Of a stretch of DNA of 64,000 nt, positions 2,989-60,968 are shown one piece after another. The notes beneath the pieces are model-generated. The model was not told the origin of the DNA. It ran no database searches and worked only from the letters and a program-made list of their open reading frames with translations. This stretch comes from a phage: the NCBI GenBank assembly GCA_028030915.1, contig GCA_028030915.1_4867.1; one strand, given 5' to 3'. Numbering within the stretch: position 1 is the first letter of the stretch; the number at the start of each line of letters is the position of its first letter. The position numbers were made by a program, and so were the translations under genes.

Positions 2989-3005
2989 AGGTGTTATCCT
3001 ATTAT
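2977..3005 (+). promoter_or_regulatory. candidate sigma70-like promoter for the 3065 gene (-35 TTTAAA, 17-nt spacer, -10 TATTAT)
   Basis: Hexamers read directly in the divergent intergenic region; GAGG RBS lies 8 nt before the ATG at 3065. Confidence 0.25.
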
Positions 3006-3064
3006 GAGATGTTGTCTCGGATAGATAATATCTGTCTGAGTTCTTTTTGAGATGAGGTTATCCC

Positions 3065-3535
3065 ATGAGCGAAGAAGTGAAATACCAAGCGTTCGACGGA
3101 GATGTGGACAACGAAGATTCGCTTCTCCGCCAAACACAACAGCTACGCGTTAAGCTCGTCACGGATATGGTGAATGACGGTGAAGTACACAAAGACTTAA
3201 AAGCCGTCGACCGAATCGAACGCCTAATCAACGGCATCGACAAACAGGTCATGACGAAGCGGAAAATTAAAGCTGCTGAGAAAGGCGCTGAGGCGACTCA
3301 AGATTTGGCCAACAGTTTAAACGGCTTCTTAATGACCCGTGCAGGCGTTGGTATCAAACGTCACGACGATGAAGAAGATTTAAATAACGGATACCAACCC
3401 ACCGTCCCACAGATTGCCGCAGTACGGCCTCCGAAAGAAGGTGAGTTGGCACCAGTAGGCGAAAAGATTGACGTTGACCAGATCATGGCGTCTGCGTTTG
3501 CGAGTCGTCGTCCTGCTGATGACGACGAAGACTAA
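3065..3535 (+). CDS. hypothetical acidic protein (156 aa)
   Basis: ORF with upstream GAGG RBS; acidic C-terminus (DDEEDL, ADDDED). Confidence 0.45.
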   Translation: MSEEVKYQAFDGDVDNEDSLLRQTQQLRVKLVTDMVNDGEVHKDLKAVDRIERLINGIDKQVMTKRKIKAAEKGAEATQDLANSLNGFLMTRAGVGIKRHDDEEDLNNGYQPTVPQIAAVRPPKEGELAPVGEKIDVDQIMASAFASRRPADDDED

Positions 3536-4211
3536 ACAGCGCAGTGTCCTTTACGTCAGTACCGACGTATTGAGCAAGAAAACGGGTGGACTCCTTAAAG
3601 GGGTTCACCTTATCTCTTTTTATTTGCGCGATGGCTTCTTCCGTTAATTCGCTGGTCAGCATACTCGGTCGGGTAATGGTGAAATCCGGAATCGGTTTCT
3701 GGAAATGGCCCGCGTGTTGTTCTATCCACGGGTACCAGTCGTACATTATCCAACCGTCCCATGCAGAAGCAAGTCGTCCTGGTGTAAGATCGCTGTGAGG
3801 AATAACAACGACGTCTACTTGCACTTCGTTATAGTAGTAACGCAGTTCTTCCAAAAACACATGACGTTCTTCATCATCGAGATCAGCGTATGGCCACAGG
3901 TTAAACGTTAAGACTGGCCGCTCGATAGGAGCGTGCATCTGTATCGTCATTAACATTGCCTGTACTTCGTTCTTTAGCGTAAGCAACATTTCTGTTGGCT
4001 GCGCGTTCTGCAACGCGCGTTTATCACGCTCCGCGAACTTTTTATTCCAGTCCTGAATTCCTACCACTTCGGCCCACGCATCCGTGAACCGCATCCGATA
4101 CACTTCTAAATCAAGCTTCTCTAATACATCAGGCTGCAGCACTTTCGCCCAACCAATTCGTGTATCGAAGATTGTGTCGATATCGACTAAGAAACGGCGT
4201 CCTAATCTCAT
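3483..4211 (-). CDS. hypothetical protein (242 aa)
   Basis: ORF in track; its 3' end overlaps the convergent 3065..3535 ORF by 53 nt, so one of the two ends is uncertain. Confidence 0.4.
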   Translation of the reverse strand: MRLGRRFLVDIDTIFDTRIGWAKVLQPDVLEKLDLEVYRMRFTDAWAEVVGIQDWNKKFAERDKRALQNAQPTEMLLTLKNEVQAMLMTIQMHAPIERPVLTFNLWPYADLDDEERHVFLEELRYYYNEVQVDVVVIPHSDLTPGRLASAWDGWIMYDWYPWIEQHAGHFQKPIPDFTITRPSMLTSELTEEAIAQIKRDKVNPFKESTRFLAQYVGTDVKDTALFSLRRHQQDDDSQTQTP

Positions 4212-4876
4212 TCCGGGCGTCCTAAGTTGTTACCGATGTGCATTGCTTTAAAGTACGAAGACCATGTACGCGGCGCTTTTGAACTGGTACGCTCAGCCCC
4301 TTCCAGGTTGATGCGACCTTTACCGGTTTGCCGTAGCGATTGATAGAACGCACGTTGTAACGTATCGTTACCACCACGCGCCCACAGGAACTCCTGGAGC
4401 GTTGAGTCGTGTCCATCCGAGTACATGATGTACGCTTCTGGAAACGAAACACCCGAAGCTTTGGAAGGCCCTACTACCTGACCTGAGAGTTTATCGCGGA
4501 CTTTATCGTTCTTCGCCACCGCCATTTTCTTCTCTTGCATCTGCGTCTGGCGACGTGCAGGTAGCCGGAAGACTAAATGGGGGTAACGGGTACGCTGTAG
4601 GATACCGGTTTTCGGTTCCGTGAGCCACAGGCGCTGACACAAGTTCAGTCCCATCGCTTCGCAAATTTTAATATTGCGCATATGGTCAATTTTGACCTTG
4701 CCGCCAGTTGGGTTGTAAACAGGCAACCCTTCGCGCAGACGATTGAACTCTTCGTCAGACATTCGTGAGAAAGCGCGCTTGGCAGCTTCCGCGTTAATCC
4801 CGGTCGGGTCAACTAAGTTCAGTAACTGTAAAGCATAAGCTTCTGCTTTTTTTCGCCGTGCCGGGTCTAATCTCAT
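4208..4876 (-). CDS. hypothetical protein (222 aa)
   Basis: ORF in track; 4-nt overlap with the downstream gene suggests coupling. Confidence 0.45.
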   Translation of the reverse strand: MRLDPARRKKAEAYALQLLNLVDPTGINAEAAKRAFSRMSDEEFNRLREGLPVYNPTGGKVKIDHMRNIKICEAMGLNLCQRLWLTEPKTGILQRTRYPHLVFRLPARRQTQMQEKKMAVAKNDKVRDKLSGQVVGPSKASGVSFPEAYIMYSDGHDSTLQEFLWARGGNDTLQRAFYQSLRQTGKGRINLEGAERTSSKAPRTWSSYFKAMHIGNNLGRPE

Positions 4877-5148
4877 TTTTTCATCCTCTCACGGAGCACT
4901 GGAAGAACCACACGTTCCAGGTCTTCAATCCAGTACGGGATATCTTCATTGTGTTCAGGCACACCGACCGCATCAACCTTCGGTTTATCATTAATCAGGT
5001 TGCCGTAATGGGCATTTACCTGATGACTAAATTCAGACAGTGCATGTCGCGGTGCTGAGAACTCGTTATGGAACGCGGTGCTAAGTTCCTGGCTAATACC
5101 AGCGAGACCCAGACACAGACGCTCTACAATATCTTTCTGATAACGCAT
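4873..5148 (-). CDS. hypothetical protein (91 aa)
   Basis: Short ORF fitted between neighbours; 4-nt overlap with the 4208..4876 gene. Confidence 0.35.
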   Translation of the reverse strand: MRYQKDIVERLCLGLAGISQELSTAFHNEFSAPRHALSEFSHQVNAHYGNLINDKPKVDAVGVPEHNEDIPYWIEDLERVVLPVLRERMKK

Positions 5149-13671: not shown

Positions 13672-14151
13672 TCATTGCACAAGGCAACTACTTTTGTGCC
13701 GTTCGTAGGCATGATTAAAAGACTCTCTGTCTTCGCGATAGCTGCGAATGAGAGACTTAATCTGTCGTGACAAATCACGACTAATGTCCTGAGGGCTACG
13801 AGAACCAGGGTCGAGATATATCCCGGAGGGTATATCATGAAGAGTGGGGCGAATAAACTCTTCACAAAGCGGTGCGGCCATCGGGGTGCGCCACCCCTTA
13901 GCTTCTGCGTAATTGTTCAACGACTTAGCGTACAGATAAACGTAATAAGCATAAGCGTTCACATCCGCAACAAACATTTTCCCTGCCAACTTTTTCGCCT
14001 CAGGACTGTTCCCACCAGCATAAACTGGTGGGTGTTCTAAAGGACGAAAAGGCCAATCTCCGGTTGAGGAGTAATCTGGGTCTACGTGACGGACGGCTCC
14101 AGGACATCCTGTCAACAATAGCACCAGTATCGCCACCAAAAATAACTTCAT
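13672..14151 (-). CDS. putative lipoprotein (159 aa), lipobox LLTGC
   Basis: N-terminal hydrophobic segment ending LLTGC; located immediately downstream of a membrane-anchored Pro-rich protein. Confidence 0.5.
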   Translation of the reverse strand: MKLFLVAILVLLLTGCPGAVRHVDPDYSSTGDWPFRPLEHPPVYAGGNSPEAKKLAGKMFVADVNAYAYYVYLYAKSLNNYAEAKGWRTPMAAPLCEEFIRPTLHDIPSGIYLDPGSRSPQDISRDLSRQIKSLIRSYREDRESFNHAYERHKSSCLVQ

Positions 14152-14160
14152 GTATGCTCC

Positions 14161-14676
14161 TCATGGATTATTAAGCGTACTGATAATCTCCTGTCGGAAA
14201 TCATTTGCCTCCTGCGACCCTACCGGGCGAGAAGCGGCCTGGTATTTCTTGGCAGGTGGGCTAGACGGATTTAACGGTGCCGGCGGTGTTACCGGCTTGA
14301 GTTCTACAGGCGGAACCGCGGCCTCAGTGCCTGTTCCTGTTGGAGATTTGGTACCATCATATGGCGGTCGAGAACCCAGGCACGTGAAGAGACGATCGTA
14401 CAACTTATTGTTCTCCACTTCGCTATGATCGGACTTCTCTTTTAGCTCCTTATAGGATATCTCCAGATACTGAGTACGCGATTGAACGCTAACCAGTGTG
14501 TGGTATTGAACAATGTAGGCGTATGAGACAAATGCAGAGAACGCGATCAGTGCCACTATCACTAGTGTCACTATTTTCCCGGCTCGTGTTACTTTCTCCC
14601 CCTCGCCCGGTTTAAATGCTTCCCACAGCATTTGTAAGAATGGAAGCAGTTTGAAAACTGATGCTATCATGCTCAC
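14161..14676 (-). CDS. membrane-anchored protein with Pro-rich linker (spanin-like or TonB/TolA-like)
   Basis: Single N-terminal TM segment (IVTLVIVALIAFSAFVSYAYIV), short charged helical region, Pro-rich stretch PVELKPVTPPAPLNPSSPP. Confidence 0.45.
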   Translation of the reverse strand: MSMIASVFKLLPFLQMLWEAFKPGEGEKVTRAGKIVTLVIVALIAFSAFVSYAYIVQYHTLVSVQSRTQYLEISYKELKEKSDHSEVENNKLYDRLFTCLGSRPPYDGTKSPTGTGTEAAVPPVELKPVTPPAPLNPSSPPAKKYQAASRPVGSQEANDFRQEIISTLNNP

Positions 14677-18277: not shown

Positions 18278-18871
18278 TTACGCTTCGGCCTCAAAGAACG
18301 GCTGGTTCGGTACCACTGCATATTCGAGCACGAAAAGATGTTCTGGGGCATCTTCTGCTCGCCACAGTTTGTGACACGTTGCCAGTTTTTCCAGGATGGT
18401 CAACCAGCTGAGCTGGCAGAAAGCACGATCGCCGAAGAACAGTTTCTGCAGTGCAATCGACACATCCATATACGCCTGTTTGAAGTCGAGTTCTTTATCG
18501 TAACCCGCCGACTGTCGCCACGTCAGCACGAAGCCTGCTTCGGTTTCGTTAATTGCTGGACGTAAACCACAAATCCACATCAGCGCCAGATTAACGTTCC
18601 AGTCGAATTCGATACCTTCGTCTTCGTCATCACCAAACGCCGCGTTTAACGCATCGTAGAAACCGTGGTTCTCTGCGAACCATTCGCCGTACTCAACGTA
18701 TACCGGTGCTTCGACAGCTTCCCCATCGACTTCACCGATAGGACGCTCTACATAGTTCGGGTTGGTTTGAACGTGTTCCGCACCCGCGCGAATTAATTCG
18801 TAGACATCTTTGGCGGTGATTTGTGCGGCTGTTTTAAGACCTGGATACCAGGGGCGTGTTACGAGTGTCAA
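18278..18871 (-). CDS. hypothetical acidic protein (197 aa)
   Basis: ORF in track; 4-nt overlap with upstream gene. Confidence 0.45.
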   Translation of the reverse strand: MTLVTRPWYPGLKTAAQITAKDVYELIRAGAEHVQTNPNYVERPIGEVDGEAVEAPVYVEYGEWFAENHGFYDALNAAFGDDEDEGIEFDWNVNLALMWICGLRPAINETEAGFVLTWRQSAGYDKELDFKQAYMDVSIALQKLFFGDRAFCQLSWLTILEKLATCHKLWRAEDAPEHLFVLEYAVVPNQPFFEAEA

Positions 18872-19590
18872 AGCAATGCTCCTTTCATGATAGTGTTATT
18901 TGCCAGTAGTGTACCGGCCGCAGGTGATATTTTGGTGTACAGCGTATCCCAGATTTTCTGAAGTTCAGCGACGCGTTGGTCGTGGTCTTCCTTCGCAAAA
19001 GCAAGCTGACGTGTTTCAGCTTTCGGTGGTGTCATTTTCGCACCGTAGAATGCTGCGTCTTTTCGGTAGCTGGCCATCCAGCGTTTCCCGACCGGTGATT
19101 TCTTTTTAATCATCGCAACAGCAGCACCCTCACCGAAGCGGTAGCCTAAAGCGATTTCGGCTGTGCTCGGCTTGCGTTTGAGTTGTTTTGTCAGATGATC
19201 CTCGATGTGTTTCATGTAAACGGCAGCAAGCTGTACAGCATACTTCGGTTTATTAAGGTCCGCATTCTTTGGGATGTTAAGTTGTTTCCCATACAGACGT
19301 ATCATGGAGCGTTTAGTGCCTGTCGTCATTTGGACAACACTACTAGCACTGCTCGATTTATTCTTACCCACGTTTTTATTAAAACGGGATTCACGATAAA
19401 TGGTGGTCGCGAGCATCCCGGCATGTACGCCTTGTTTTCGAGATGCGGTGACGATGAGAGGTTTAATCTCATTGAACTGGTCCTGGATAAGGACGAATTC
19501 TTTTTGGTGTTTGTTACTGGTGGTCTGGTAAGAAGCGTTGCTGTTGAACGTAGTCATTGCTACCAGAAGAAACAAAATGGTGCGAAACAT
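18868..19590 (-). CDS. putative secreted lytic transglycosylase (SLT-like domain)
   Basis: N-terminal signal-like segment MFRTILFLLVAMTTFNSNA; SLT-like motifs ESRFN...SSASSVVQMT and YRFGEGAA. Confidence 0.45.
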   Translation of the reverse strand: MFRTILFLLVAMTTFNSNASYQTTSNKHQKEFVLIQDQFNEIKPLIVTASRKQGVHAGMLATTIYRESRFNKNVGKNKSSSASSVVQMTTGTKRSMIRLYGKQLNIPKNADLNKPKYAVQLAAVYMKHIEDHLTKQLKRKPSTAEIALGYRFGEGAAVAMIKKKSPVGKRWMASYRKDAAFYGAKMTPPKAETRQLAFAKEDHDQRVAELQKIWDTLYTKISPAAGTLLANNTIMKGALL

Positions 19591-51878: not shown

Positions 51879-52793
51879 ATGACAGATCAAGTAGAATCCA
51901 GGATCTCGTCTGAACTGTACGACAAACCGTCAATTCTGTCGGTTGTCGCAACTTCTAAGTGTAACTTAGACTGTAGCTTCTGTGGAGGGGCTTATTACAT
52001 GGATAGAGAAGATACTTCTCGTGAGTTTCAACGTGAAGAGATTCTCTCGATTTTAGAGAAGAATCCGGATATCGGTGAGATTCATTGGACGGGCGGTGAG
52101 CCGCTGTTAGCGCAGCGCAAGATTGAAGACTTCGTGAACGAGTTGAAGGAGTCTCATCCGAACCTCCGTCATCACATGTACACCAACGGTTTAAAGATGC
52201 GTAAATCACATCTGCCGTTGCTGAAACAGTTCGACCTTATCTTTGTGTCCATTGACGGCTACAAGAAGTCGGAACGTCCGTTTATGAACTTTGTAAACGG
52301 TGGTAATCATGAAGCGCTGGAAGTGCTGTACGAGCTGGACAACTATTACACCTGGGGTGTGATGACGCGTGACCAGTTAGGTGATAAACGCTGGTACGAA
52401 GATTTCATCGAGCTGCACCGAGCAATCTATCATTACCGTCCAGGTGGGATGTCGTTGCTGTTTGATGCGATGATGCCGAAACCGTTATCGCCAGACCACG
52501 TCATGAACTTCATGTACGGGTATTGGAAAATACTCGACAATATCGAACGCCTTAACATGCAGAACGATTCTGAATGTGGGCTTGCGATCAGTAAAATGTT
52601 CGATACCGAGTGCAACACGTGCAGTGAAGTTCTGTGGCTTAACGCCGACGGTACGCAGGAGCAAATTCAGAACGCCCCAGAGATATTGGAAGTCGGCTGT
52701 AATCGCCTGGCGCGTTCTATCGGCGTTGATGCGTATAACTACATCAACCGTGTAATTTCTGCTAAGCGTAAACGGGCGGCGAACAATGAGTAA
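51879..52793 (+). CDS. radical SAM enzyme (about 305 aa) with short Cys-containing C-terminal extension
   Basis: CNLDCSFC (C-x3-C-x2-C) near the N-terminus, WTGGEPLL, YTNG, SIDG; C-terminal ECGLAISKMFDTECNTCSEV...GC; GGAG RBS before the ATG at 51879 (the track ORF starts at an upstream TTG). Confidence 0.7.
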   Translation: MTDQVESRISSELYDKPSILSVVATSKCNLDCSFCGGAYYMDREDTSREFQREEILSILEKNPDIGEIHWTGGEPLLAQRKIEDFVNELKESHPNLRHHMYTNGLKMRKSHLPLLKQFDLIFVSIDGYKKSERPFMNFVNGGNHEALEVLYELDNYYTWGVMTRDQLGDKRWYEDFIELHRAIYHYRPGGMSLLFDAMMPKPLSPDHVMNFMYGYWKILDNIERLNMQNDSECGLAISKMFDTECNTCSEVLWLNADGTQEQIQNAPEILEVGCNRLARSIGVDAYNYINRVISAKRKRAANNE

Positions 52794-54114
52794 CAGCGAA
52801 CAGCAAATCCAGTACACACCACGCACATATCAGGTCGTGACTAACTTGTCATGTAACCTGGACTGCGAATACTGCTACGAGCGTAAATACCCACGCAACA
52901 ACAAAGTAGCTGACGTGATTGATTTTATCCACGCTTGCTTCGAGCGTGATAAAGATATCCCGAACGTTGAAGTCATCATCGATATCATCGGTGGTGAGCC
53001 GTTCATGCAGCCTAAACTTCTTTTGGCGGCCTTTGAAACCGCAGAGAAGTTATGTGCAGAACACAATCGCCCGTATATGTTCAGTATCTCCACGAACGGT
53101 ACGCTTCTGGACCGTCCGCTGAACAAAGAAATTATCGAGCGCTGGAAAGACAAACTGTCTATTGGGGTCTCCATCGATGGTTTACCTGAAATCCATGACA
53201 AATATCGTATCTTTACCACGACGCGTGAAGGGTCGTACGAAGCTGCGGTACGCGGTTACAATTACCTGAAGAGTGTTGGCATCGCTGAGCTGGGCGTAAA
53301 GGCGACGTTTACGATCGATACATTGCCGCACTATGCCGCCAGCATGAAATCGTTAATTGACATGTCCGGCGGTGGTACCATTTCTGGTAACGTAACGTAC
53401 GAAGATATCCTGCCGCGCCATATGGCGTTGGATATCGCGAACCAGATGATGGACGTGATGGACTACTGGATTGAGAAGGGTCTGCACACCAACCCGCGTA
53501 ACACGATTACGCACATCATCCCGGATGGCCTGAACTTTATGGCAACTTGGGACCCGGATTGGCGTGACAAACTCTTACATGACGACTCTGTTCGTCTCGA
53601 CCCAGAACGCCTGAAACCGTACTGCGGTACGTTGACGCACATGACCTGTCTCGGCTTTGATCGCAAGATTTACGGTTGTAACCGTTTCATGTCCACGGTA
53701 ACTTCCCGTTCTGCTGTAGCAGAACTGGTCGGTCGTGAGTTTGTGAGCCTGGACGGTGGTAAGCTGTTAGAAGAGATTCAAACGCAGTACACCAACTACC
53801 CAGAAACCTGTTTAGGGTGTCCGATGAAACACAGCTGCGGTAGCTGCGCAGCAGCATCGTACGAAAACGGTGAAGGTACACTGGAAGACCGTAAAGCGTA
53901 TCACGCCGAGCGTCGTCAGTGTGGTTGGACTACTGCGAAGCTGATGGCGGCGGAATATTGGTATCAGAAAACTGGTACGACCCGCGCATCAGATTTGCAC
54001 GATAAATCCATGTGCTATTGTTCACGTTGTGTACGCCAACGTGCTGAAGCAGAAAAATTACAAAACGGAGCCCAGAATGAAGTCAATACTGATTCACAAT
54101 TTTACGAAGCGTAA
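52786..54114 (+). CDS. radical SAM enzyme with SPASM-like Cys-rich C-terminal domain (442 aa)
   Basis: CNLDCEYC (C-x3-C-x2-C), GGEPF, STNG, SIDG; C-terminal cysteine cluster CGTLTHMTCLGFDRKIYGCNRF...CLGCPMKHSCGSCAAASY; start overlaps the upstream rSAM stop by 8 nt. Confidence 0.75.
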   Translation: MSNSEQQIQYTPRTYQVVTNLSCNLDCEYCYERKYPRNNKVADVIDFIHACFERDKDIPNVEVIIDIIGGEPFMQPKLLLAAFETAEKLCAEHNRPYMFSISTNGTLLDRPLNKEIIERWKDKLSIGVSIDGLPEIHDKYRIFTTTREGSYEAAVRGYNYLKSVGIAELGVKATFTIDTLPHYAASMKSLIDMSGGGTISGNVTYEDILPRHMALDIANQMMDVMDYWIEKGLHTNPRNTITHIIPDGLNFMATWDPDWRDKLLHDDSVRLDPERLKPYCGTLTHMTCLGFDRKIYGCNRFMSTVTSRSAVAELVGREFVSLDGGKLLEEIQTQYTNYPETCLGCPMKHSCGSCAAASYENGEGTLEDRKAYHAERRQCGWTTAKLMAAEYWYQKTGTTRASDLHDKSMCYCSRCVRQRAEAEKLQNGAQNEVNTDSQFYEA

Positions 54115-54643
54115 ACTGCACTTGGTCGATCGCTTCCTGCGCAAAAGCAAGCTGTACAATGTGCACGCAATTGTGGCAGGGGAAGACTTCACTGATGAAA
54201 TCCAAAGCCTGTTGATTAAATACGGGCTGAATGTGATGATCCCGGTCTACTGCGTTGAGAAAGGACACGAGTCTGTCGCGGAAATCGAAAAGCGCAACCC
54301 TGGCTTTGAGAAGCGACTGCTTGCATACCCACGCCACAAAATCGAACTGCTACGACACTCTATTGATGAAGCCAGTCCTGAAAGTTTAGTGGCATTGGGC
54401 TTGTCTTTCCCGCGGATGCGTATTCGTAACTTACGCTCCAATAACCCGGTTGACGCTTATTACACAGAGCGTCAAATCTTCGAAGAACACCTGCTCCCGC
54501 AGTTGGAAGAAGAAGAGCAACACAACATTTCTCTGTTGTGGGCCGGTAACCTCGATCAGGACTTCCAGATGCTGGACTTCGGTTTGTTGTTAGAACTTGG
54601 CCTGATTGAGGAGGACGAATGTCTGTTACTGACAAAAGCTTAA
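54077..54643 (+). CDS. hypothetical protein (188 aa from the internal Met with GGAG RBS)
   Basis: The track ORF starts at 54029 inside the rSAM gene; the Met at 54077 has an RBS but still overlaps the rSAM 3' end by 38 nt. Confidence 0.4.
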   Translation: MKSILIHNFTKRKLHLVDRFLRKSKLYNVHAIVAGEDFTDEIQSLLIKYGLNVMIPVYCVEKGHESVAEIEKRNPGFEKRLLAYPRHKIELLRHSIDEASPESLVALGLSFPRMRIRNLRSNNPVDAYYTERQIFEEHLLPQLEEEEQHNISLLWAGNLDQDFQMLDFGLLLELGLIEEDECLLLTKA

Positions 54644-55290
54644 CGAACGAAGAGATCCGCGCCCGTTATTTCCAGCGTGATTTGCCGATTGATCGTCACG
54701 GTAATTTCATGGAACGAATCGGTGCGCAGGATCAGGGCCGTACCGGATTTTGTGCATTACTCCATTACCATCTCATCGAAGGGATGTCTGATAAAGAAGC
54801 CCTGGCACGCATGAAGCTGTATGAGATGTCGGAGATTGAAGCTAACTTCACATTGAAACGCACGAAAGAGTTTATTGCTAATGTGCTGGAGATTGACCTC
54901 GACGAAATTCGCGGGAATCTGAAATCTACCGCACGTTACATTTACGAAGACGTGCAGAAGATGCTGTTGGAACTCGACCACCGCTACGAAGATGAGCGCC
55001 ATGGTTATATCGAGTTTGAAGGTAGTCACTTTCAAGCCGATGAATCGTCGCGTACCATCCTCGGTCAATACATTCAGGCAGATACCGCACCAGAATACTG
55101 GCTCGATACGCTGAATACTAAGCACAGTCCGTTTACAGTAGCCCAATGTAAAGCGTTGCTGGCCGCTATTGTTGCACGTGACCAAGTGTTGCACTCAGCA
55201 ATGGCAGATAACAAACGCCAAATCCGTGAGTTAGCTGAAAAGCGCGATTACACTGGATTAAAAACATTGTCCGAGTCACTCGGCATGTAA
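54619..55290 (+). CDS. hypothetical protein (223 aa), last gene of the cluster
   Basis: ORF overlapping the previous gene by 25 nt; followed by a strong terminator. Confidence 0.5.
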   Translation: MSVTDKSLTNEEIRARYFQRDLPIDRHGNFMERIGAQDQGRTGFCALLHYHLIEGMSDKEALARMKLYEMSEIEANFTLKRTKEFIANVLEIDLDEIRGNLKSTARYIYEDVQKMLLELDHRYEDERHGYIEFEGSHFQADESSRTILGQYIQADTAPEYWLDTLNTKHSPFTVAQCKALLAAIVARDQVLHSAMADNKRQIRELAEKRDYTGLKTLSESLGM

Positions 55291-55371: not shown

Positions 55372-55899
55372 TTAAACGAATCCGTCCAGTTCACCGTTGG
55401 TGGTGCTCAGGTCAGTTTTAACGATTGGCTGCGTTACAGTATAAACTGCAAGGCTGGCAGGTTGGTATTTAATGTGGCCTTCTTTCACCATAACAGTGAT
55501 GATTTTCTCACCACTGTCGCCGTCCTCGCGTGAAATGGTGAGTTCAGACAATGCAAACGCATCTTCCGTTTTACCGGCGGCAATTAGATCTGCGTTGACA
55601 AAAGCAAGCACTTCTTCATCGGTATCCCATTCTGCCTGGTCAGCGGTAACTGCTTTCGCACCGATGATGTTCAATGAATCGAGGCGGGTGTAATGCAGCT
55701 CTTTCTCGCCAGTAAAGTTAGCGGATTCCGCGGTGGCAGTGATGGTGAGTTTGGAGTTGCGAGTGTCTCCAGAATCTGCTGGTGAATAGTCAGCAACAGC
55801 GCCGAATGTAACGTCAGCAGTAGTTAACGGACTAGACAGTCCGCTGTTTGCAGCATTAAACAGCGCGACGAGTTGGTCTTTTGCAGAGATGACTGCCAT
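55372..55899 (-). CDS. hypothetical protein (175 aa), Thr/Ala-rich, possibly virion-associated
   Basis: ORF in track. Confidence 0.45.
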   Translation of the reverse strand: MAVISAKDQLVALFNAANSGLSSPLTTADVTFGAVADYSPADSGDTRNSKLTITATAESANFTGEKELHYTRLDSLNIIGAKAVTADQAEWDTDEEVLAFVNADLIAAGKTEDAFALSELTISREDGDSGEKIITVMVKEGHIKYQPASLAVYTVTQPIVKTDLSTTNGELDGFV

Positions 55900-56022: not shown

Positions 56023-56514
56023 ATGAAACGTCTATTTATCGTATTCGCGATTATAAACCTGTTGGCCGGTTGTGTTCAGTCGCCAAGCAACATAGGACAA
56101 TTTAGCGCCACACCAGTAAAGAATCACGACTTGGTGATTTATACATGCACAGGGACGCAGGAGAAGTTTGTAGACTACCGTCCGGTACTGGACAACCTAC
56201 AAATGATGCCGCGGTCAGTAACAGTAATGGATGTGGGTGCAAACTGGGTAGCAGCGTGGGACGGTGGCAAACTAGAGTCACCGATGATGTTTAAAGATAC
56301 AATTGGCAAAATCGACGGGAATGTTAATACCACCACAGGTGAGCGTTATTACCGTATTAATAAAACCGTAAACGATAGCCCCACTTACTCTTTTTCGGAT
56401 GTGAACCCGTATACCGGCGAAGGTAAAGGGATGACATTCTTTCGCTGCAGCAGCGGGTTTATCGGTGAAGTTCCTACTCCGATTACGATTGTTCCGTTAG
56501 AAGAAAATAAATAA
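56023..56514 (+). CDS. putative lipoprotein (163 aa), lipobox LLAGC
   Basis: N-terminal MKRLFIVFAIINLLAGC; own terminator downstream. Confidence 0.55.
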   Translation: MKRLFIVFAIINLLAGCVQSPSNIGQFSATPVKNHDLVIYTCTGTQEKFVDYRPVLDNLQMMPRSVTVMDVGANWVAAWDGGKLESPMMFKDTIGKIDGNVNTTTGERYYRINKTVNDSPTYSFSDVNPYTGEGKGMTFFRCSSGFIGEVPTPITIVPLEENK

Positions 56515-56517
56515 TGC

Positions 56518-56560
56518 TTACCCACTCCCGTAAGGGGAGTGGGTAAGGGCTTTATTTACC
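56518..56560 (+). terminator. intrinsic terminator (CTTACCCACTCCC-GTAAG-GGGAGTGGGTAAG, then T-run)
   Basis: 13-bp inverted repeat after the lipoprotein gene. Confidence 0.6.
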
Positions 56561-56639: not shown

Positions 56640-57155
56640 TTAGATTTTAACTAGCTTGCTCCAATCGATGGGTTGTTGCTTAACCACTTTAACGGTACCA
56701 CGTGTCGGTGACCAGAAGGTGATATCAGGCTGGTTGCGTACGTCAACATGCAGCCAGGTAATATCGCACTCGATAAAGTGAATAAACGGAAACTCGTTAG
56801 GGTTCGCGGCAATATAGTCGTGTACTTTCTGCAACGGAGTATCAAGCATTGTTGCATCAAACGCATTACCGAATTTATGCATACTGCCTGATTCGGCGTA
56901 CAGTTTGTTTGCACGAGTTTGCCAATCGCCACCCTTTGGTTTCTCTTGATTAATAAAGAACTGCAGGGTACGCAGACTACGCTGTTGCTGGGAACTGGTT
57001 AAAATCACCATCCGCCCAAAACGATTACGAATCTGTTGGAGCGAGATTAGCAGTAACGGATTAAGGAAACGAATAGCACCTTCACCGTATTTCGCGATGT
57101 ACTCCTGCGGCATCAACTCTTTTAACGCGAAGTTGGCAGGATTCGGATGAAACAT
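56640..57155 (-). CDS. peptidase M15-like (zinc D-Ala-D-Ala carboxypeptidase/endopeptidase fold) cell-wall hydrolase
   Basis: SMHKFGNAFD (S-x-H-x-x-G-x-A-x-D) and downstream WLHVDV (H-x-D) match the M15 zinc-binding signature. Confidence 0.55.
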   Translation of the reverse strand: MFHPNPANFALKELMPQEYIAKYGEGAIRFLNPLLLISLQQIRNRFGRMVILTSSQQQRSLRTLQFFINQEKPKGGDWQTRANKLYAESGSMHKFGNAFDATMLDTPLQKVHDYIAANPNEFPFIHFIECDITWLHVDVRNQPDITFWSPTRGTVKVVKQQPIDWSKLVKI

Positions 57156-57164
57156 TTTCTCTCC

Positions 57165-57806
57165 TTAAGGGGTAGTCAGGAACGCACGTTTGATATTCAA
57201 ATACTGCACGTTTACCGGTTGCCCATTAGTAATGTCAACACGTTCGTGTTCAGGAATCGCTAACGTACGCGACGTTCTAAAGAACAGGTAGTTGCGATTA
57301 TAGGACAACGTCTTTTCTACCGGCCGGCTATAAACCACCTTAGAGTTATCGTCTACATAGGACGGCCAACCAAACTCGTGAACGGCATGGTAGAAGGACT
57401 TACGAATAAAGGTGTCAACGCCTAATGCCTCCATGATACGTAAGAACATCAGGTCAGCGAAAGTTTTGTCACATGCACGAGATAGATTACCTTCGACAGT
57501 GTCAGGGTAAAAGCCTACAGATGAACGTTTCTGGTAAAACAAATCATGCACACAAGCGGCAGCAGCCCAAGGCCCATCCGGATGCAGGATAGGACGTAAC
57601 GCTTCTGGAATGCTTGCCAGGTCCGTCACAAATCCTTTCGGTACCGTTACCCATAACGGGGTATCCGGATGCACACCTGCTAATGCTACCATCGCATCCA
57701 TTCCGGTCTGTTCACGATAGAGGCTGCGCAACGTAAACTCGAAATGGAAATCATCCGTGAGGATAAACCACGGCTTCTCTAACAACTTATACTTAAGTGC
57801 TTCCAT
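57165..57806 (-). CDS. DUF1353-family protein (213 aa)
   Basis: VTVPKGFVTDLASIPEALRP...AAACVHDLFY matches the DUF1353 core pattern (P-x-GF-x-TD-x-ASIP ... HD). Confidence 0.5.
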   Translation of the reverse strand: MEALKYKLLEKPWFILTDDFHFEFTLRSLYREQTGMDAMVALAGVHPDTPLWVTVPKGFVTDLASIPEALRPILHPDGPWAAAACVHDLFYQKRSSVGFYPDTVEGNLSRACDKTFADLMFLRIMEALGVDTFIRKSFYHAVHEFGWPSYVDDNSKVVYSRPVEKTLSYNRNYLFFRTSRTLAIPEHERVDITNGQPVNVQYLNIKRAFLTTP

Positions 57807-57813
57807 ACTGACC

Positions 57814-57906
57814 TCACGTCATATAACGCACGACCATCGTGAGGACCATTAATCCCAGTAAAATGGGCATTAAGCCTTTCGGCCAGTCGTCGTTGTCGTA
57901 TTGCAT
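57814..57906 (-). CDS. small hydrophobic ORF (30 aa), possible membrane peptide in the lysis region
   Basis: Hand translation MQYDNDDWPKGLMPILLGLMVLTMVVRYMT with GGAGGG RBS; below the track size cut-off. Confidence 0.2.
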   Translation of the reverse strand: MQYDNDDWPKGLMPILLGLMVLTMVVRYMT

Positions 57907-58094
57907 GGCTTTACCCTCCGACAGAAGATCGCACGTAATAGTTTGAAGAACCCAGAATCGTAATACGTTTCCGGAACGGTTTGTACTTCGGGGAACTTAG
58001 GCGGAGTTGGACGGTGGGTCATTACGTTTTCTCCTTGCGGCAAAAACAAGGGCGCGCCAGATAGCTTTCATTAAGGCAGCAAACCAATTCTGTT

Positions 58095-58712
58095 TCATTT
58101 GCACATCCCCAACTTAGCCACGTAGTCTGGCATTTCCTGATAGACGCGGCCATACCAGCCGTAAGTAAACTCTTCGTTATCCTCACGCCCTTCACTGATT
58201 TCCGTGTAGTACGCAACCTGATGACAGGTTAAAGCGAACATCAGTCGATTCAGGCCCTCTTCCCCACGGGCTTTGATGAAGCCTTCTAACGCTGTTAACG
58301 TACGTGGCCCGATACCACCATCGGCATCGATATCATCGTATAGTTTACCCTGACGGTTTAATACGTTCAGAATACGTTGCAGGGACTTGATACAGTTACC
58401 GCGTCCTGCGTTAATGCCGAAATCAAACATTCGGTCAGCTAGCAGGACATTCATTTTCATAATCTGGTCTAAACGCATCCGTTGCCACCAGAGTTTGTTG
58501 TAGATGTCTAACGCGGTTTCTAGGCTCAGGTCACGCATATCCCCTTTATAGCCATATTCACGCGCAGTGAGTTCAGTGACACCACGGTTCGTTGCTTTAC
58601 CCAAATCTTTCGGGTTATTAACGTAACCGGCTTCGATGTTTACTTTGGCACGAATAATGCCCTCTTTACTCCAACGATCGACCACGATAACCTCCTGCGT
58701 TGATAGGGTCAT
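58095..58712 (-). CDS. endolysin-like muramidase (GH108-like N-terminal domain plus peptidoglycan-binding domain)
   Basis: EAGYVNNPKDLGKATNRGVT matches the GH108 signature; C-terminal DADGGIGPRTLTAL is PG-binding-like; start set at the Met just after the upstream hairpin. Confidence 0.6.
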   Translation of the reverse strand: MTLSTQEVIVVDRWSKEGIIRAKVNIEAGYVNNPKDLGKATNRGVTELTAREYGYKGDMRDLSLETALDIYNKLWWQRMRLDQIMKMNVLLADRMFDFGINAGRGNCIKSLQRILNVLNRQGKLYDDIDADGGIGPRTLTALEGFIKARGEEGLNRLMFALTCHQVAYYTEISEGREDNEEFTYGWYGRVYQEMPDYVAKLGMCK

Positions 58713-58746
58713 AAAAAGAAAGCCTCTTCCCCGTGGGGAAGAGGGC
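58713..58746 (-). terminator. intrinsic terminator hairpin (CCTCTTCC...GGAAGAGG) with A-run on the plus strand
   Basis: Inverted repeat immediately downstream of the 58791..60968 gene and upstream of the endolysin start. Confidence 0.4.
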
Positions 58747-58790
58747 ATGGGTTATTCTCAGGCTTTAACCCCGTCAAGTTCCTCGTTAAA

Positions 58791-60968
58791 TTATGATAAC
58801 GATTTCTTTGGCCGCTCCCACGGTTTAGGGGCGGATTTGGTATACGGATTACATTCCATCATCTTGCCGAGATACGCATCGTAATACACGAAGCGATCGA
58901 CATAGAACTTCTCCACCGGTGCACTACTGGTAGCCGATTTCACCCGGTTGCGTTCCACAGCGAGGTTAATCGTCCCGGTAGGCGCGGGTTTTAGCGTGAA
59001 CATCACCGCACGGTTGTAACGCCAAGTGTCGTGCACAATATCAAACTCCGATACACTGTGTGCCATGATACCAAACAATGTGGTGCTCGGTAAATTGGCT
59101 ACAGCATCACCGTATGGTGTTCCCACCAAACCGCCGGGTATGTTTTGCTTTTTGAACAGCGTACCTGAAATAATCGTACCTAAGAACTCCACAACTACAG
59201 GCTTGGTTGGGTCGGTGACTTTATCTATCCCATCCGCACTGGCCAGTCGATTGGCATCTAAAACTGCGAGGTAGTCGAGGAACTCTTGGTACTCGTCGGT
59301 AACATTCGGTTTCACCGTTCCGACGGATACCCAGTTGACGATACTTTTATTCCCACCGACAGCTTCGCCTGCCATCCCAGGGCGAGTCCATGACATCCCG
59401 TCTTCACGACCGTAGACATAGACTGGCGAGCCGGTAGCCGGGGTGTTCCATTGCTCGAACGCTGTATATCGTCCCGGCTGGCCCCAATCCCCACCCGGAC
59501 CGCCATAGTAGCGACTCTGGTAGCCGGTAAATTGCGCGACGACTAACTGGGTAGCACCGCCTTTGTCACGGGACCCAGCTAAGCCGTTACGGTTATTGGT
59601 GCCGCTGGGCACCGCCGCGCCTGGCCCGAGAGGCGCACCACCAGCTCCACCGATCTTGGTGGTGCTAAACGCATAGTAGTCGCCCCCACCCCCACCTCCG
59701 GCGATGGTGCCGTAGTTTTCGATGGTGACTTTGCCACGGAAGGCATCGGTAATGTGGATTGCGTCAGCTCCGTCTGCTGATGTGTTCGCAGGCAGAGAAT
59801 AGACCATACCCGAACCACCACGACCAAGAATGGTTCCCCGGTTAACGAAGTTCCAAACCACCTCGCCAATTTGCGGCAATTCGTCGATAACGAACGTCGG
59901 TTTCAGGTTGCTGTCGCGATAAACGAAAGCCCCTGCATCCACGGTCACGTTAACAAACAAACGCCCGCACGCCGCATGGTTGGTCAACGTCGTGGCCCAG
60001 TAGCTGTCCGAAACTTGCGACGTAGTTGTGTAGTTCAGGTTAAGGGTTTGCTCGTTATCTTGATAGCGTGCCACATTCAACGTGGCACTGCCCATGACTT
60101 TGTACGAACCCTCCACGGGTGCCAATTGCACTTGTCTTGGCCACTCGCCTGCCAAGTTCTCTACAGGAGCAATTTCGTTTACATCAAAAACACTCCGAAT
60201 GCCGAGTGTCTCGATGGCCAGAGCATCGTGCAGGCTACCGGTGAAATCATCCGGGACGTATGTGGTTTTGCCTGCATATGTCTCGAGTTTGTTACGTGAA
60301 AAGAACACATACTTCGTTCCAAACATCCCGCTCCCCGGTCTAGCGGTCAAAGCCACGACGCTGTTATACGCAGAGGTTTGGCCTATATCCTCCGGGGACA
60401 TCGGGGCGCTGACATCGACTTTATCAAGATCCACGATCCGTTTGGCTGCATTAGAGTAGAAGTTAATCCACTGCTGTTTATTCGCAGCCTTTAACGTGAG
60501 AATGATATTGGTAACAGTGTAGACGGTGTTGATATCCACGTCGCCGTTTATCACATCTAGCGTTTGGCTGCCGTACCAGACAAGACTTGTCTGTTTCGCC
60601 TGGAACGTGATGCGCGCAGCATTGTTTGTCCAAGTGATAGGCAGGTCTTCAAAGTCGTCGGTTAAAAAGGTAATCCCCAGTAAAGTGTCTAAATGCGGCA
60701 ACAGTTCGTGAATGGATGCACAAGTGGGAATGGCATCCAACTTAACCTTAGCGAAATAATCAGCAATATTTTGCTTCGTGACTTGGGCCGTAATTTGACC
60801 GTAATTTGAATACCCCGGACCCCCTGTCAGTGTGACGTCTAGGGTTTTTTCGTCACGATGCGCCACGGACACCAGGCGTACGTTAGCGGGGTCTACTGCT
60901 TTGGCGACCGCGTTTTTACGGTTGAGCGACCGAATCACGGTCGCCACTAAATCAGGAGTGTAGGACAT
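58791..60968 (-). CDS. tail fiber/receptor-binding-like protein (725 aa) with Gly-rich segment
   Basis: Gly-rich IAGGGGGGDYY...GGAGGAPLGPG; C-terminal motif PYTKSAPKPW shared with the next gene. Confidence 0.5.
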   Translation of the reverse strand: MSYTPDLVATVIRSLNRKNAVAKAVDPANVRLVSVAHRDEKTLDVTLTGGPGYSNYGQITAQVTKQNIADYFAKVKLDAIPTCASIHELLPHLDTLLGITFLTDDFEDLPITWTNNAARITFQAKQTSLVWYGSQTLDVINGDVDINTVYTVTNIILTLKAANKQQWINFYSNAAKRIVDLDKVDVSAPMSPEDIGQTSAYNSVVALTARPGSGMFGTKYVFFSRNKLETYAGKTTYVPDDFTGSLHDALAIETLGIRSVFDVNEIAPVENLAGEWPRQVQLAPVEGSYKVMGSATLNVARYQDNEQTLNLNYTTTSQVSDSYWATTLTNHAACGRLFVNVTVDAGAFVYRDSNLKPTFVIDELPQIGEVVWNFVNRGTILGRGGSGMVYSLPANTSADGADAIHITDAFRGKVTIENYGTIAGGGGGGDYYAFSTTKIGGAGGAPLGPGAAVPSGTNNRNGLAGSRDKGGATQLVVAQFTGYQSRYYGGPGGDWGQPGRYTAFEQWNTPATGSPVYVYGREDGMSWTRPGMAGEAVGGNKSIVNWVSVGTVKPNVTDEYQEFLDYLAVLDANRLASADGIDKVTDPTKPVVVEFLGTIISGTLFKKQNIPGGLVGTPYGDAVANLPSTTLFGIMAHSVSEFDIVHDTWRYNRAVMFTLKPAPTGTINLAVERNRVKSATSSAPVEKFYVDRFVYYDAYLGKMMECNPYTKSAPKPWERPKKSLS

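Follow-up and report, generated by a model that had tools for sequence, protein, structure and literature searches.

What does a DUF1353 protein contribute when it is encoded beside two peptidoglycan hydrolases of a jumbo phage? The question is raised by a locus in the 64,000-nucleotide (nt) stretch of phage DNA analyzed here (GenBank assembly GCA_028030915.1, contig GCA_028030915.1_4867.1; the whole stretch is called the window below). Host lysis by jumbo phages is essentially undescribed, and a 2026 review of jumbo-phage biology mentions neither holins nor spanins. In the window, six minus-strand genes follow one another in the order GH108 muramidase, small open reading frames (ORFs) A, B, and C, DUF1353 protein, and M15 peptidase, and we regard this six-gene unit as probably the late lysis cassette of an SPN3US-like jumbo phage, with a phospholipase A2 (PLA2)-like accessory enzyme. 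The DNA and most of the cassette genes are already in public records, and the PLA2 activity of the DUF1353 family was published in 2024. We found no description of three features: in SPN3US-like phages, DUF1353 is always accompanied by endolysins that are themselves exchangeable; DUF1353 lies inside lysis cassettes of unrelated phages; and three small peptide genes are conserved.

A 2.6-kb region around the locus matched 36 phage records, of which 34 span 80% or more of the query and 33 reach 95% identity or better; the well-matching records are all ~240-kb Seoulvirus jumbo phages with Salmonella, E. coli, or Proteus as hosts. The window itself is Seoulvirus DNA (98.5% identity to SPLA1a and 96.4% to the type phage SPN3US), and the region spans gp155 to gp160 in SPN3US gene numbers, with all cassette genes on the minus strand. 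ORF listing and family scans recovered, at their positions and on that strand, all the features named in a preliminary description of this DNA. The cassette and its borders are as follows:

58723..58744, minus strand: terminator-like hairpin between the gp155-homologue virion-protein gene and the cassette; 9-bp stem with 6 G-C pairs and tail CTTTCTTTTT (terminator scan and sequence)
58095..58712, minus strand: GH108 muramidase with C-terminal PG_binding_3 domain, 205 amino acids (aa), homologue of SPN3US gp156 (Pfam, PHROG)
57997..58098, minus strand: ORF A, 33 aa, MKQNWFAALMKAIWRALVFAARRKRNDPPSNSA (match to the 35-residue PHROG phrog_25143, E = 4e-12)
57870..58022, minus strand: ORF B, 50 aa, conserved core DSGFFKLLRAIFCRRV (ORF listing; Shine-Dalgarno [SD] sequence AAGGAG 8 nt upstream)
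57814..57906, minus strand: ORF C, 30 aa, MQYDNDDWPKGLMPILLGLMVLTMVVRYMT (SD sequence GGAGGG 7 nt upstream)
57165..57806, minus strand: DUF1353 protein, 213 aa, homologue of SPN3US gp157 (Pfam PF07087, E = 1.2e-17, 63.8 bits with a cut-off of 22.5)
56640..57155, minus strand: M15/LAS-fold zinc peptidase, 171 aa, homologue of SPN3US gp158 (conserved motif, fold)
56517..56547, no strand assigned: bidirectional terminator-like hairpin, 13-bp stem with 8 G-C pairs (terminator scan, both strands)

The cassette is one transcription unit between two hairpin terminators. Its genes are tightly spaced or overlapping and have strong SD sequences; the 3' arm of the upstream hairpin, GGAAGAGG, doubles as the ribosome-binding site of the GH108 gene, and the downstream hairpin closes both the cassette and a convergent lipoprotein gene. 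An equivalent hairpin with a T-run precedes the DUF1353 gene in the phages CR5 and Phobos. As described before, exactly 9 nt separate the DUF1353 stop from the M15 ATG, and the M15 gene is preceded by the SD sequence AAGGAGA. A longer GH108 start at 58748 was discarded; it would cross the terminator hairpin, and all annotators use 58712. A scan for sigma-70 promoters gave 3 sites where 8.2 were expected and is uninformative here; phages of the SPN3US type use RNA polymerases of their own make. The ORFs of the cassette are not a product of chance, since every one of them is kept in relatives in which synonymous sites are saturated.

The first part of the answer concerns the two enzymes at the ends of the unit, which bear out the idea of a lysis-type cassette: both are peptidoglycan hydrolases, and their chemistry differs in that one is a glycosidase and the other a zinc peptidase. 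For the first, both Pfam models lie above their curated cut-offs (PF05838, E = 2.3e-18, 66.9 bits, cut-off 21.2; PF09374, E = 6e-19, 68.4 bits, cut-off 24.6), as expected for a GH108-type muramidase with a peptidoglycan-binding domain. The protein also matches phrog_315 ("endolysin") with E = 1.5e-39, its homologue gp156 is labelled endolysin in the RefSeq SPN3US and SPLA1a records, and the sequence has neither a signal peptide nor a signal-arrest-release (SAR) domain. At the place of EGGY, which we take to be the motif with the N-terminal catalytic Glu of GH108 enzymes, its translated sequence shows E27-A-G-Y, a candidate one-residue variant.

The second hydrolase, gp158, is a divergent M15-type zinc peptidase and the second candidate endolysin of the cassette. 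It likewise lacks a signal peptide and a SAR segment. Pfam alone leaves the M15 call of the preliminary description below the cut-off (Peptidase_M15_3, 16.8 bits with a cut-off of 23.2, E = 0.0076, 24 residues aligned), a precomputed PF08291 match exists in only 1 of 31 clusters of gp158 homologues, and single-sequence and profile searches against Protein Data Bank (PDB) chains gave chance matches only; it is the fold and the zinc motif that uphold the call. Indeed, H93, D100, H136, and D138 (H-x6-D...H-x-D) are invariant in 20 gp158 homologues of 47 to 77% identity, and with the ligands H93, D100, and H136 intact, the suspicion of a lost zinc site falls away. The AlphaFold2 model (pLDDT 94) agrees: it has the hedgehog/DD-peptidase fold, and its structural matches are VanXYc, hedgehog, Ply500, LysB4, the T5 L-Ala-D-Glu peptidase, VanX, VanY, and MepA. 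Hence, gp158 shares the LAS fold and the H-x6-D...H ligands with the M15 endolysins of T5, Ply500, and LysB4 and with the Zn DD-peptidase of Streptomyces albus (M15A), but differs from them in its subthreshold Pfam score, in a two-helix insertion (residues ~64 to 88) ahead of the metal site, and in belonging to a small family whose 31 clusters come nearly all from jumbo-phage relatives.

Are both hydrolases lysins, or is one of them a virion or ejection enzyme, as had been considered? Published mass spectrometry (MS) of SPN3US virions (Thomas et al. 2016; Ali et al. 2017) has neither as a stable virion protein: gp156 is absent from the wild-type list, and gp158 gave 2 to 3 spectra in some complete particles and none in tailless heads, is missing from the 2017 wild-type list, and was considered non-specific by the authors. 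We therefore dropped a virion role for either hydrolase; the cassette protein that was scored in the head is gp157. It could still be argued that gp158 trims peptidoglycan or has a regulatory task, e.g., as a DD- or LD-carboxypeptidase that readies the substrate of the muramidase, or that it is a trace tail-associated entry enzyme. Its best structural matches are of the carboxypeptidase/dipeptidase type (1LBU, VanXYc) as much as phage L-Ala-D-Glu endopeptidases, the few spectra come from complete and not from tailless particles, and in the typhoid-toxin islet the TtsA-type muramidase requires cross-links of a particular type (PMC11525133). However, gp158 homologues are the only recognizable peptidoglycan hydrolases beside DUF1353 in CR5, Phobos, and Derbicus, in whose contigs a scan found no close GH108 relative, and gp158 matches phrog_894 ("endolysin") together with a distant homologue at another viral locus (L130, see below); with the MS record as it is, we hold a trimming or entry role for gp158 to be improbable.

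The distribution of the two enzymes fits interchangeable endolysin modules that co-reside here and are alternatives in relatives. The layout GH108, small ORF(s), DUF1353 is found in EaH2, Asesino, Machina, Huxley, Caitlin, and Wellington, and the layout terminator, DUF1353, M15 in CR5, Phobos, and Derbicus. Both hydrolases accompany DUF1353 in SPN3US-like phages, in pEa_SNUABM_29, and in the uncultured relatives L016, L018, L019, and L024 (our locus numbers), whereas the Erwinia phages EaH2, Machina, and Wellington have GH108 only and CR5, Phobos, and Derbicus M15 only. A scan of CR5-type contigs found no close relatives of the GH108 protein, yet DUF1353 is kept there, and therefore the hydrolase appears exchangeable and DUF1353 constant.

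The second part of the answer concerns this constant element. The preliminary description had left DUF1353 as a bystander, which does not agree with its constancy in the cassette nor with the fact that the one characterized member of the family is a PLA2. Like the hydrolases, gp157 has no signal peptide; it carries a C-terminal extension that is specific to jumbo phages. Across 48 aligned homologues, H87, D88, and G146 never vary, whereas conservation of D118 is at least 90%. The AlphaFold2 model is of high quality (pLDDT 94, pTM 0.91), and the best structural match of gp157 is a fungal PLA2, although a Foldseek search of the model against the PDB returned nothing significant, and single-sequence and profile/HMM searches against PDB chains gave chance matches only. 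A profile-profile comparison by hhalign with three group XIV PLA2 sequences was more informative (E = 2.8e-4, probability 41%) and aligned H87, D88, D118, and G146 with H64, D65, D85, and G122 of the Streptomyces PLA2. In this alignment, the apparent likeness to the group XIV enzymes (S. violaceoruber, 1FAZ/1LWB; Tuber borchii, 4AUP) comprises a helical core with xHDxxY, a downstream catalytic Asp, and a C-terminal AVxxFG. Furthermore, T61-D62-L63 of gp157 resembles STDL of the S. violaceoruber enzyme (SvPLA2), residues that we take to be the Ca2+ ligands of its Ca2+ loop. In contrast to these enzymes, gp157 has no disulfides and no secretion signal and has extra beta-rich N- and C-terminal parts.

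The only characterized member of the DUF1353 family is TtaP, a PLA2 of 125 aa encoded in the typhoid-toxin islet (Gartly et al. 2024, PMC11525133). It is a distant relative of the group XIV secreted PLA2s with the catalytic residues H70, D71, and D85, has no signal peptide and remains cell-associated, and shares its islet with the phage-type muramidase TtsA; TtsA-dependent toxin release also requires a perturbation of the outer membrane, e.g., by cationic peptides (PMC11525133). gp157, which was aligned to the group XIV PLA2s and compared with TtaP by published residues, keeps the His-Asp...Asp pattern. We therefore see in gp157, as far as sequence can tell, a candidate TtaP-like or group XIV-like PLA2.

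DUF1353 genes recur near peptidoglycan hydrolases of many types in unrelated phages as well. Our survey gathered 80 viral loci with DUF1353 relatives, which were dereplicated to 35. The Pfam families within two genes of DUF1353 were Glyco_hydro_108 (5), Peptidase_M15_4 (2), Phage_lysozyme (2), Amidase_2, Amidase_3, and SLT, along with six holin-family matches, and PHROG gave the same picture. At least 11 of the 26 dereplicated non-jumbo loci have a peptidoglycan hydrolase no more than three genes from DUF1353 (binomial P = 0.008 with a rough expectation of 20%). Low-GC phages have the order endolysin (phrog_465 or phrog_435), X, DUF1353, holin (phrog_199), and a published table for Fusobacterium phage FNU1 has the order DUF1353, ORF176, amidase. 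Individual loci read:

L029 and L037: M15_4-type endolysin, transmembrane (TM) protein of 97 to 127 aa, DUF1353, holin
L034: phrog_435 endolysin, 111-aa protein, DUF1353, holin
L088 (3453..4959): amidase, DUF1353, TM protein, lipoprotein
L070: lysozyme, DUF1353
L052: DUF1353, SLT
L130: DUF1353, distant M15 (match to phrog_894, "endolysin")

The cassettes of L029, L034, and L037 lie around 3000..4900 and are, with L088, simpler candidate systems for DUF1353 function.

What do the small ORFs add? Two overlapping small ORFs at 57814..58022, one of them hydrophobic and both with good ribosome-binding sites, had been noticed before; both are present, one is indeed hydrophobic and the SD sequences are strong, but there are three ORFs, and A had been missed. 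The ATG of A and the GH108 stop codon overlap in the sequence ATGA, a hint of translational coupling, and the same 4-nt overlap is found in EaH2, Asesino, and pEa_SNUABM_29 (GTGA in the last). Uncultured ~220-kb relatives (L016 to L019) have an A-like variant of 34 aa. The ATG of B lies within xAT-GAC of A, again a geometry kept in relatives, and B homologues of 27 to 31 aa with the same overlap occur in EaH2, Asesino, and pEa_SNUABM_29. ORF A gives a cationic amphipathic helix with a net charge of +6 and a hydrophobic moment of 0.64, and B gives one as well (+6 and 0.50), with the conserved core GFFKLLRAIFxRRV; the last ~12 residues of B overlap C and are unconserved. ORF C overlaps B by 37 nt, lies 188 nt downstream of the GH108 stop, and has an acidic N-terminus followed by one TM helix (Kyte-Doolittle 15-residue maximum of 2.6). 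Its [DDDPP]+TM layout recurs in pEa_SNUABM_29, Machina, and L012, and in Caitlin-type phages a single ORF of 50 to 52 aa fuses the N-terminal PPxFPxVQ motif of B to the [DDDPP]+TM module of C. While pEa_SNUABM_29 carries A, B, and C, EaH2 and Asesino carry A and B; A was found neither fused to nor following GH108 in ~150-kb phages that have this muramidase.

Annotators have treated these ORFs unevenly: C is called in SPLA1a, phage 1252, and SaP7, B only in Lh1B, and A in Asesino and EaH2, in each case without a function (C as "hypothetical protein"), and the SPN3US records have none of the three. B and C have no match in Pfam or PHROG, and A has only phrog_25143, of unknown function. Nevertheless, all three ORFs are kept in related Erwinia jumbo phages, and pairwise codon comparison with relatives gave proportions of non-synonymous (pN) and synonymous (pS) differences of 0.32 to 0.34 versus 0.66 to 0.92 for A, 0.22 to 0.26 versus 0.71 to 1.0 for B, and 0.33 versus 0.94 for C. 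Synonymous differences are saturated and non-synonymous ones amount to 0.22 to 0.34, and therefore the proposed frames are under purifying selection. This bears on the notion that the small ORFs do not encode effector peptides but are translated as spacers or for coupling, so as to fix the proportions in which the downstream enzymes are made. The overlap geometry is conserved (ATGA/GTGA, the B start in A, the C start in B), and lineages vary in their content of A, B, and C, down to none in CR5-type phages, as would be expected of spacers; but amino acids are conserved despite saturated synonymous sites, the conserved parts are exactly the amphipathic or TM segments, and each ORF has a strong SD sequence of its own. 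We give the spacer explanation little credit.

The hydrophobic ORF had been put forward as a holin or antiholin candidate. It is a conserved gene with one TM helix beside an endolysin, but its C-terminus (RYMT, one charge) is not the charged tail of a holin, and it belongs to no holin family. In size and layout, C is nearer to type I toxin peptides of the TisB/Hok kind than to holins. It is a reasonable candidate for an inner-membrane-active lysis factor. A check of the sequences found no lipobox and no periplasmic domain in A, B, or C.

In our model, the cassette would be expressed late, probably by read-through from the head-gene block, and muramidase, peptidase, and gp157 would accumulate in the cytoplasm, because none of them has an export signal. 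At the end of infection, the single-pass peptide C and the cationic amphipathic helices A and B may permeabilize or depolarize the inner membrane; muramidase and peptidase would then reach the wall and cut glycan and peptide bonds. gp157 is probably Ca2+ dependent like the group XIV PLA2s and hence would be silent in the low-Ca2+ cytoplasm, or it may be sequestered. Once active, it would hydrolyze phospholipids of the inner and/or outer membrane and, with the cationic peptides, complete the rupture of the envelope. CR5-type phages have DUF1353 and M15 without small ORFs, which suggests that the PLA2, and not any one peptide, is the indispensable partner.

Several observations weigh against a lysis cassette of this kind. 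None of the six genes has been linked to lysis by any experiment, and deletion of ttaP in S. Typhi has no envelope phenotype (PMC11525133). None of the small ORFs occurs in all relatives, and CR5-type phages lack them altogether beside the cassette (a search there in CR5 and Phobos found no small TM ORFs), so that a holin-like role of A, B, and C is uncertain. DUF1353 also recurs beside DUF4376 and tail-fibre genes, although this association is weaker than that with hydrolases, and gp157 was detected in purified wild-type virions as a low-abundance head protein, which is unexpected for a pure lysis enzyme. Finally, other lysis candidates are encoded elsewhere in the window:

18868..19590, minus strand: SLT-domain transglycosylase, 240 aa (Pfam SLT, E = 2e-6; phrog_4067, E = 1e-57), with the N-terminal signal peptide MFRTILFLLVAMTTFNSNA ahead of SY
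13672..14676, minus strand: gene pair with spanin-like architecture (sequence features)

The first gene of the pair encodes a 171-aa protein that combines a single TM helix with a coiled-coil-like segment and a tail rich in Pro; 9 nt downstream begins the second gene, whose product is a lipoprotein of 159 aa with the lipobox LLLTGC. Both belong to PHROGs of unknown function (8719 and 8165). Because of these genes, the cassette may be only part of the lysis apparatus, and the PLA2 does not have to take the place of a spanin; the simple idea that it stands in for a missing spanin, which we had entertained, is weakened by the pair at 14676..13672. No holin or spanin appears in the PHROG-based annotation of SPLA1a, whose sole "endolysin" calls are the two cassette genes; the annotation also names a "transglycosylase", whose counterpart in the window is the SLT gene. 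The latter encodes an exported peptidoglycan-cleaving enzyme that could join in lysis or in cell-wall remodelling.

Another reading is that gp157 is a tail or tail-fibre assembly chaperone, that only GH108 is lytic, and that the cluster is a mixed module boundary. gp157 matches phrog_1158 ("tail assembly chaperone") with E = 5.2e-67, several GenBank records use this name, DUF1353 lies beside DUF4376 or tail-fibre-like genes in Francisella phage KIRK, L087, L069, CR5, and Phobos (in the last two with the DUF4376 gene directly upstream on the same strand), and the gene upstream of the cassette carries a domain like that of the Gp38 adhesin. The label, however, probably goes back to just this adjacency, and the papers mentioning DUF1353 in the library searched offer no experimental basis for it. 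The invariant His-Asp and the conserved Asp align on the PLA2 active site, the characterized family member is an enzyme, DUF1353 homologues of free-living bacteria have lipoprotein-type signal peptides (which the phage proteins lack), MS places gp157 in the head and not in the tail, and the link to peptidoglycan hydrolases of seven families is stronger than that to fibres. A chaperone function is, in our view, most improbable.

The main rival is suggested by the virion data: gp157 may be mainly packaged in the head and ejected with the DNA and act on host membranes at entry, its adjacency to endolysins reflecting shared late expression only. By analogy with the PLA2 domain of parvovirus VP1, it would perhaps help to cross the inner membrane or to handle the vesicle that nucleus-forming phages have early in infection. 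In SPN3US, gp157 was seen in wild-type virions with 4 unique peptides, 9 spectra, and 25% coverage (SC/M of 0.37 compared to 0.93 for the 12-copy portal) and received the label "Head" since tailless particles contained it as well; it has no export signal, and the cassette follows directly on a ~20-kb block of head-protein genes and is flanked by the head proteins gp155 and gp160. On the other hand, its abundance is near the detection limit, and it was undetected, along with other lowest-abundance proteins, in three ejection-protein or virion RNA polymerase (vRNAP) mutants, so that a co-purifying, membrane-binding late protein is conceivable. No A-x-E site of the prohead protease was read in gp157, and the supplementary table gives only the unprocessed mass. 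Furthermore, DUF1353 is no conserved virion gene of chimalliviruses but a mosaic gene that small temperate phages also carry, there between endolysin and holin, and in CR5-type phages DUF1353 genes overlap or abut endolysin genes. We consider it unlikely that entry is the main task of gp157. The lysis function that we favor and a function at entry are compatible, and the PLA2-like gp157 may be the packaged enzyme of the cassette.

The genes around the cassette are the following:

58791..60968, minus strand: gp155 homologue, DUF7941 plus a glycine-rich domain like that of the T-even fibre adhesin Gp38
56023..56514, plus strand: lipoprotein, 163 aa, lipobox LLAGC, homologue of SPN3US gp159, phrog_9559, convergent with the cassette
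55372..55899, minus strand: gp160 homologue, DUF7941, 175 aa, beyond the opposite-strand lipoprotein gene and in cassette orientation
54619..55290: DUF4376 protein
54029..54643: 204-aa ORF, after the radical-SAM genes and before the DUF4376 gene
52786..54114 and upstream, plus strand: two adjacent radical-SAM-domain genes

SPN3US MS assigned gp155 to the head despite its Gp38-like domain (28 peptides, in tailless particles), and gp160 is among the most abundant head proteins (more than 300 copies estimated). The position of the lipoprotein gene is kept in EaH2 and Wellington, whose sequences were checked; in Asesino and pEa_SNUABM_29, this place is taken by an opposite-strand ORF of about the same length (sequence unchecked). 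The lipoprotein could be a superinfection-exclusion or envelope protein. SPFM1, SPFM7, SPFM8, SPFM20, and other GenBank records can be aligned to the window only in fragments (~40 short pieces), and frameshifts occur in their homologues of gp157 and gp158, which suggests errors of sequencing or assembly and not biology.

How does the cassette compare to known systems? With the lambda S-R-Rz/Rz1-type cassette it shares a compact late operon, a signal-less muralytic enzyme with small membrane proteins, and overlapping or coupled genes. Unlike the lambda type, it has no holin family member or charged C-terminal tail and no spanin pair (lipoprotein, or TM segment plus periplasmic domain) within the cassette, but two hydrolases of different chemistry and a phospholipase-like enzyme. 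A and B have the traits of a disruptin, that is, a short, strongly cationic amphipathic helix encoded in a lysis cassette. The "disruptin" gp28 of phiKT, presumably a cationic peptide, and LysB of mycobacteriophages, which we take to be a lipid esterase, were compared by description only. TtsA of the typhoid-toxin islet, we assume, is a GH108 member.

Its islet has a phage-type muramidase and a DUF1353 protein in one small locus, as the cassette does (PMC11525133). The H/D/D pattern of TtaP is kept in gp157, and neither protein has a signal peptide; gp157 differs in length (213 aa compared to 125 aa) by N- and C-terminal extensions and an insertion of ~16 residues between the catalytic His and Asp. 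The muramidase alone does not suffice in the islet and membrane perturbation is needed, and the phage cassette brings together a muramidase, cationic peptides, and a PLA2 homologue. However, the islet serves toxin release without lysis. Phage WO has been proposed to have a cassette with a patatin-type PLA2, which is itself a hypothesis (PMC9203015) and involves a fold unrelated to that of gp157. Common to phage WO, disruptins, LysB, and the cassette studied here are cationic peptides or a lipid hydrolase beside an endolysin, so that the last barrier would be removed chemically and not by fusion; the possible spanin-like pair elsewhere in the window sets our phage apart from these non-spanin disruptors.

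Taken further, and quite tentatively, since we rate it as rather doubtful in its full breadth, DUF1353 PLA2s may be a general and hitherto unrecognized class of phage lysis enzymes that are stored in the cytoplasm and gated by Ca2+. In SPN3US-like jumbo phages, they would form the conserved, membrane-breaching core of a system that has no canonical holin and is aided by peptides of 30 to 50 aa, and in many small phages an accessory between endolysin and holin; TtsA-TtaP would be a domesticated fragment of such a system, and a few head-packaged copies would act also at entry. If a DUF1353 lysis phospholipase is real, it adds a lipid-hydrolyzing step to the holin-endolysin-spanin scheme of Gram-negative hosts, puts a testable enzymatic function in place of the widespread annotation as a tail assembly chaperone, and offers a reason why the typhoid-toxin islet has its fifth, so far unexplained gene. 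It would also provide small membrane-active peptides and two signal-less hydrolases for the design of enzybiotics. Amber-mutant genetics and deep proteomics of SPN3US already exist, and therefore these predictions for the lysis of jumbo-phage hosts are directly testable.

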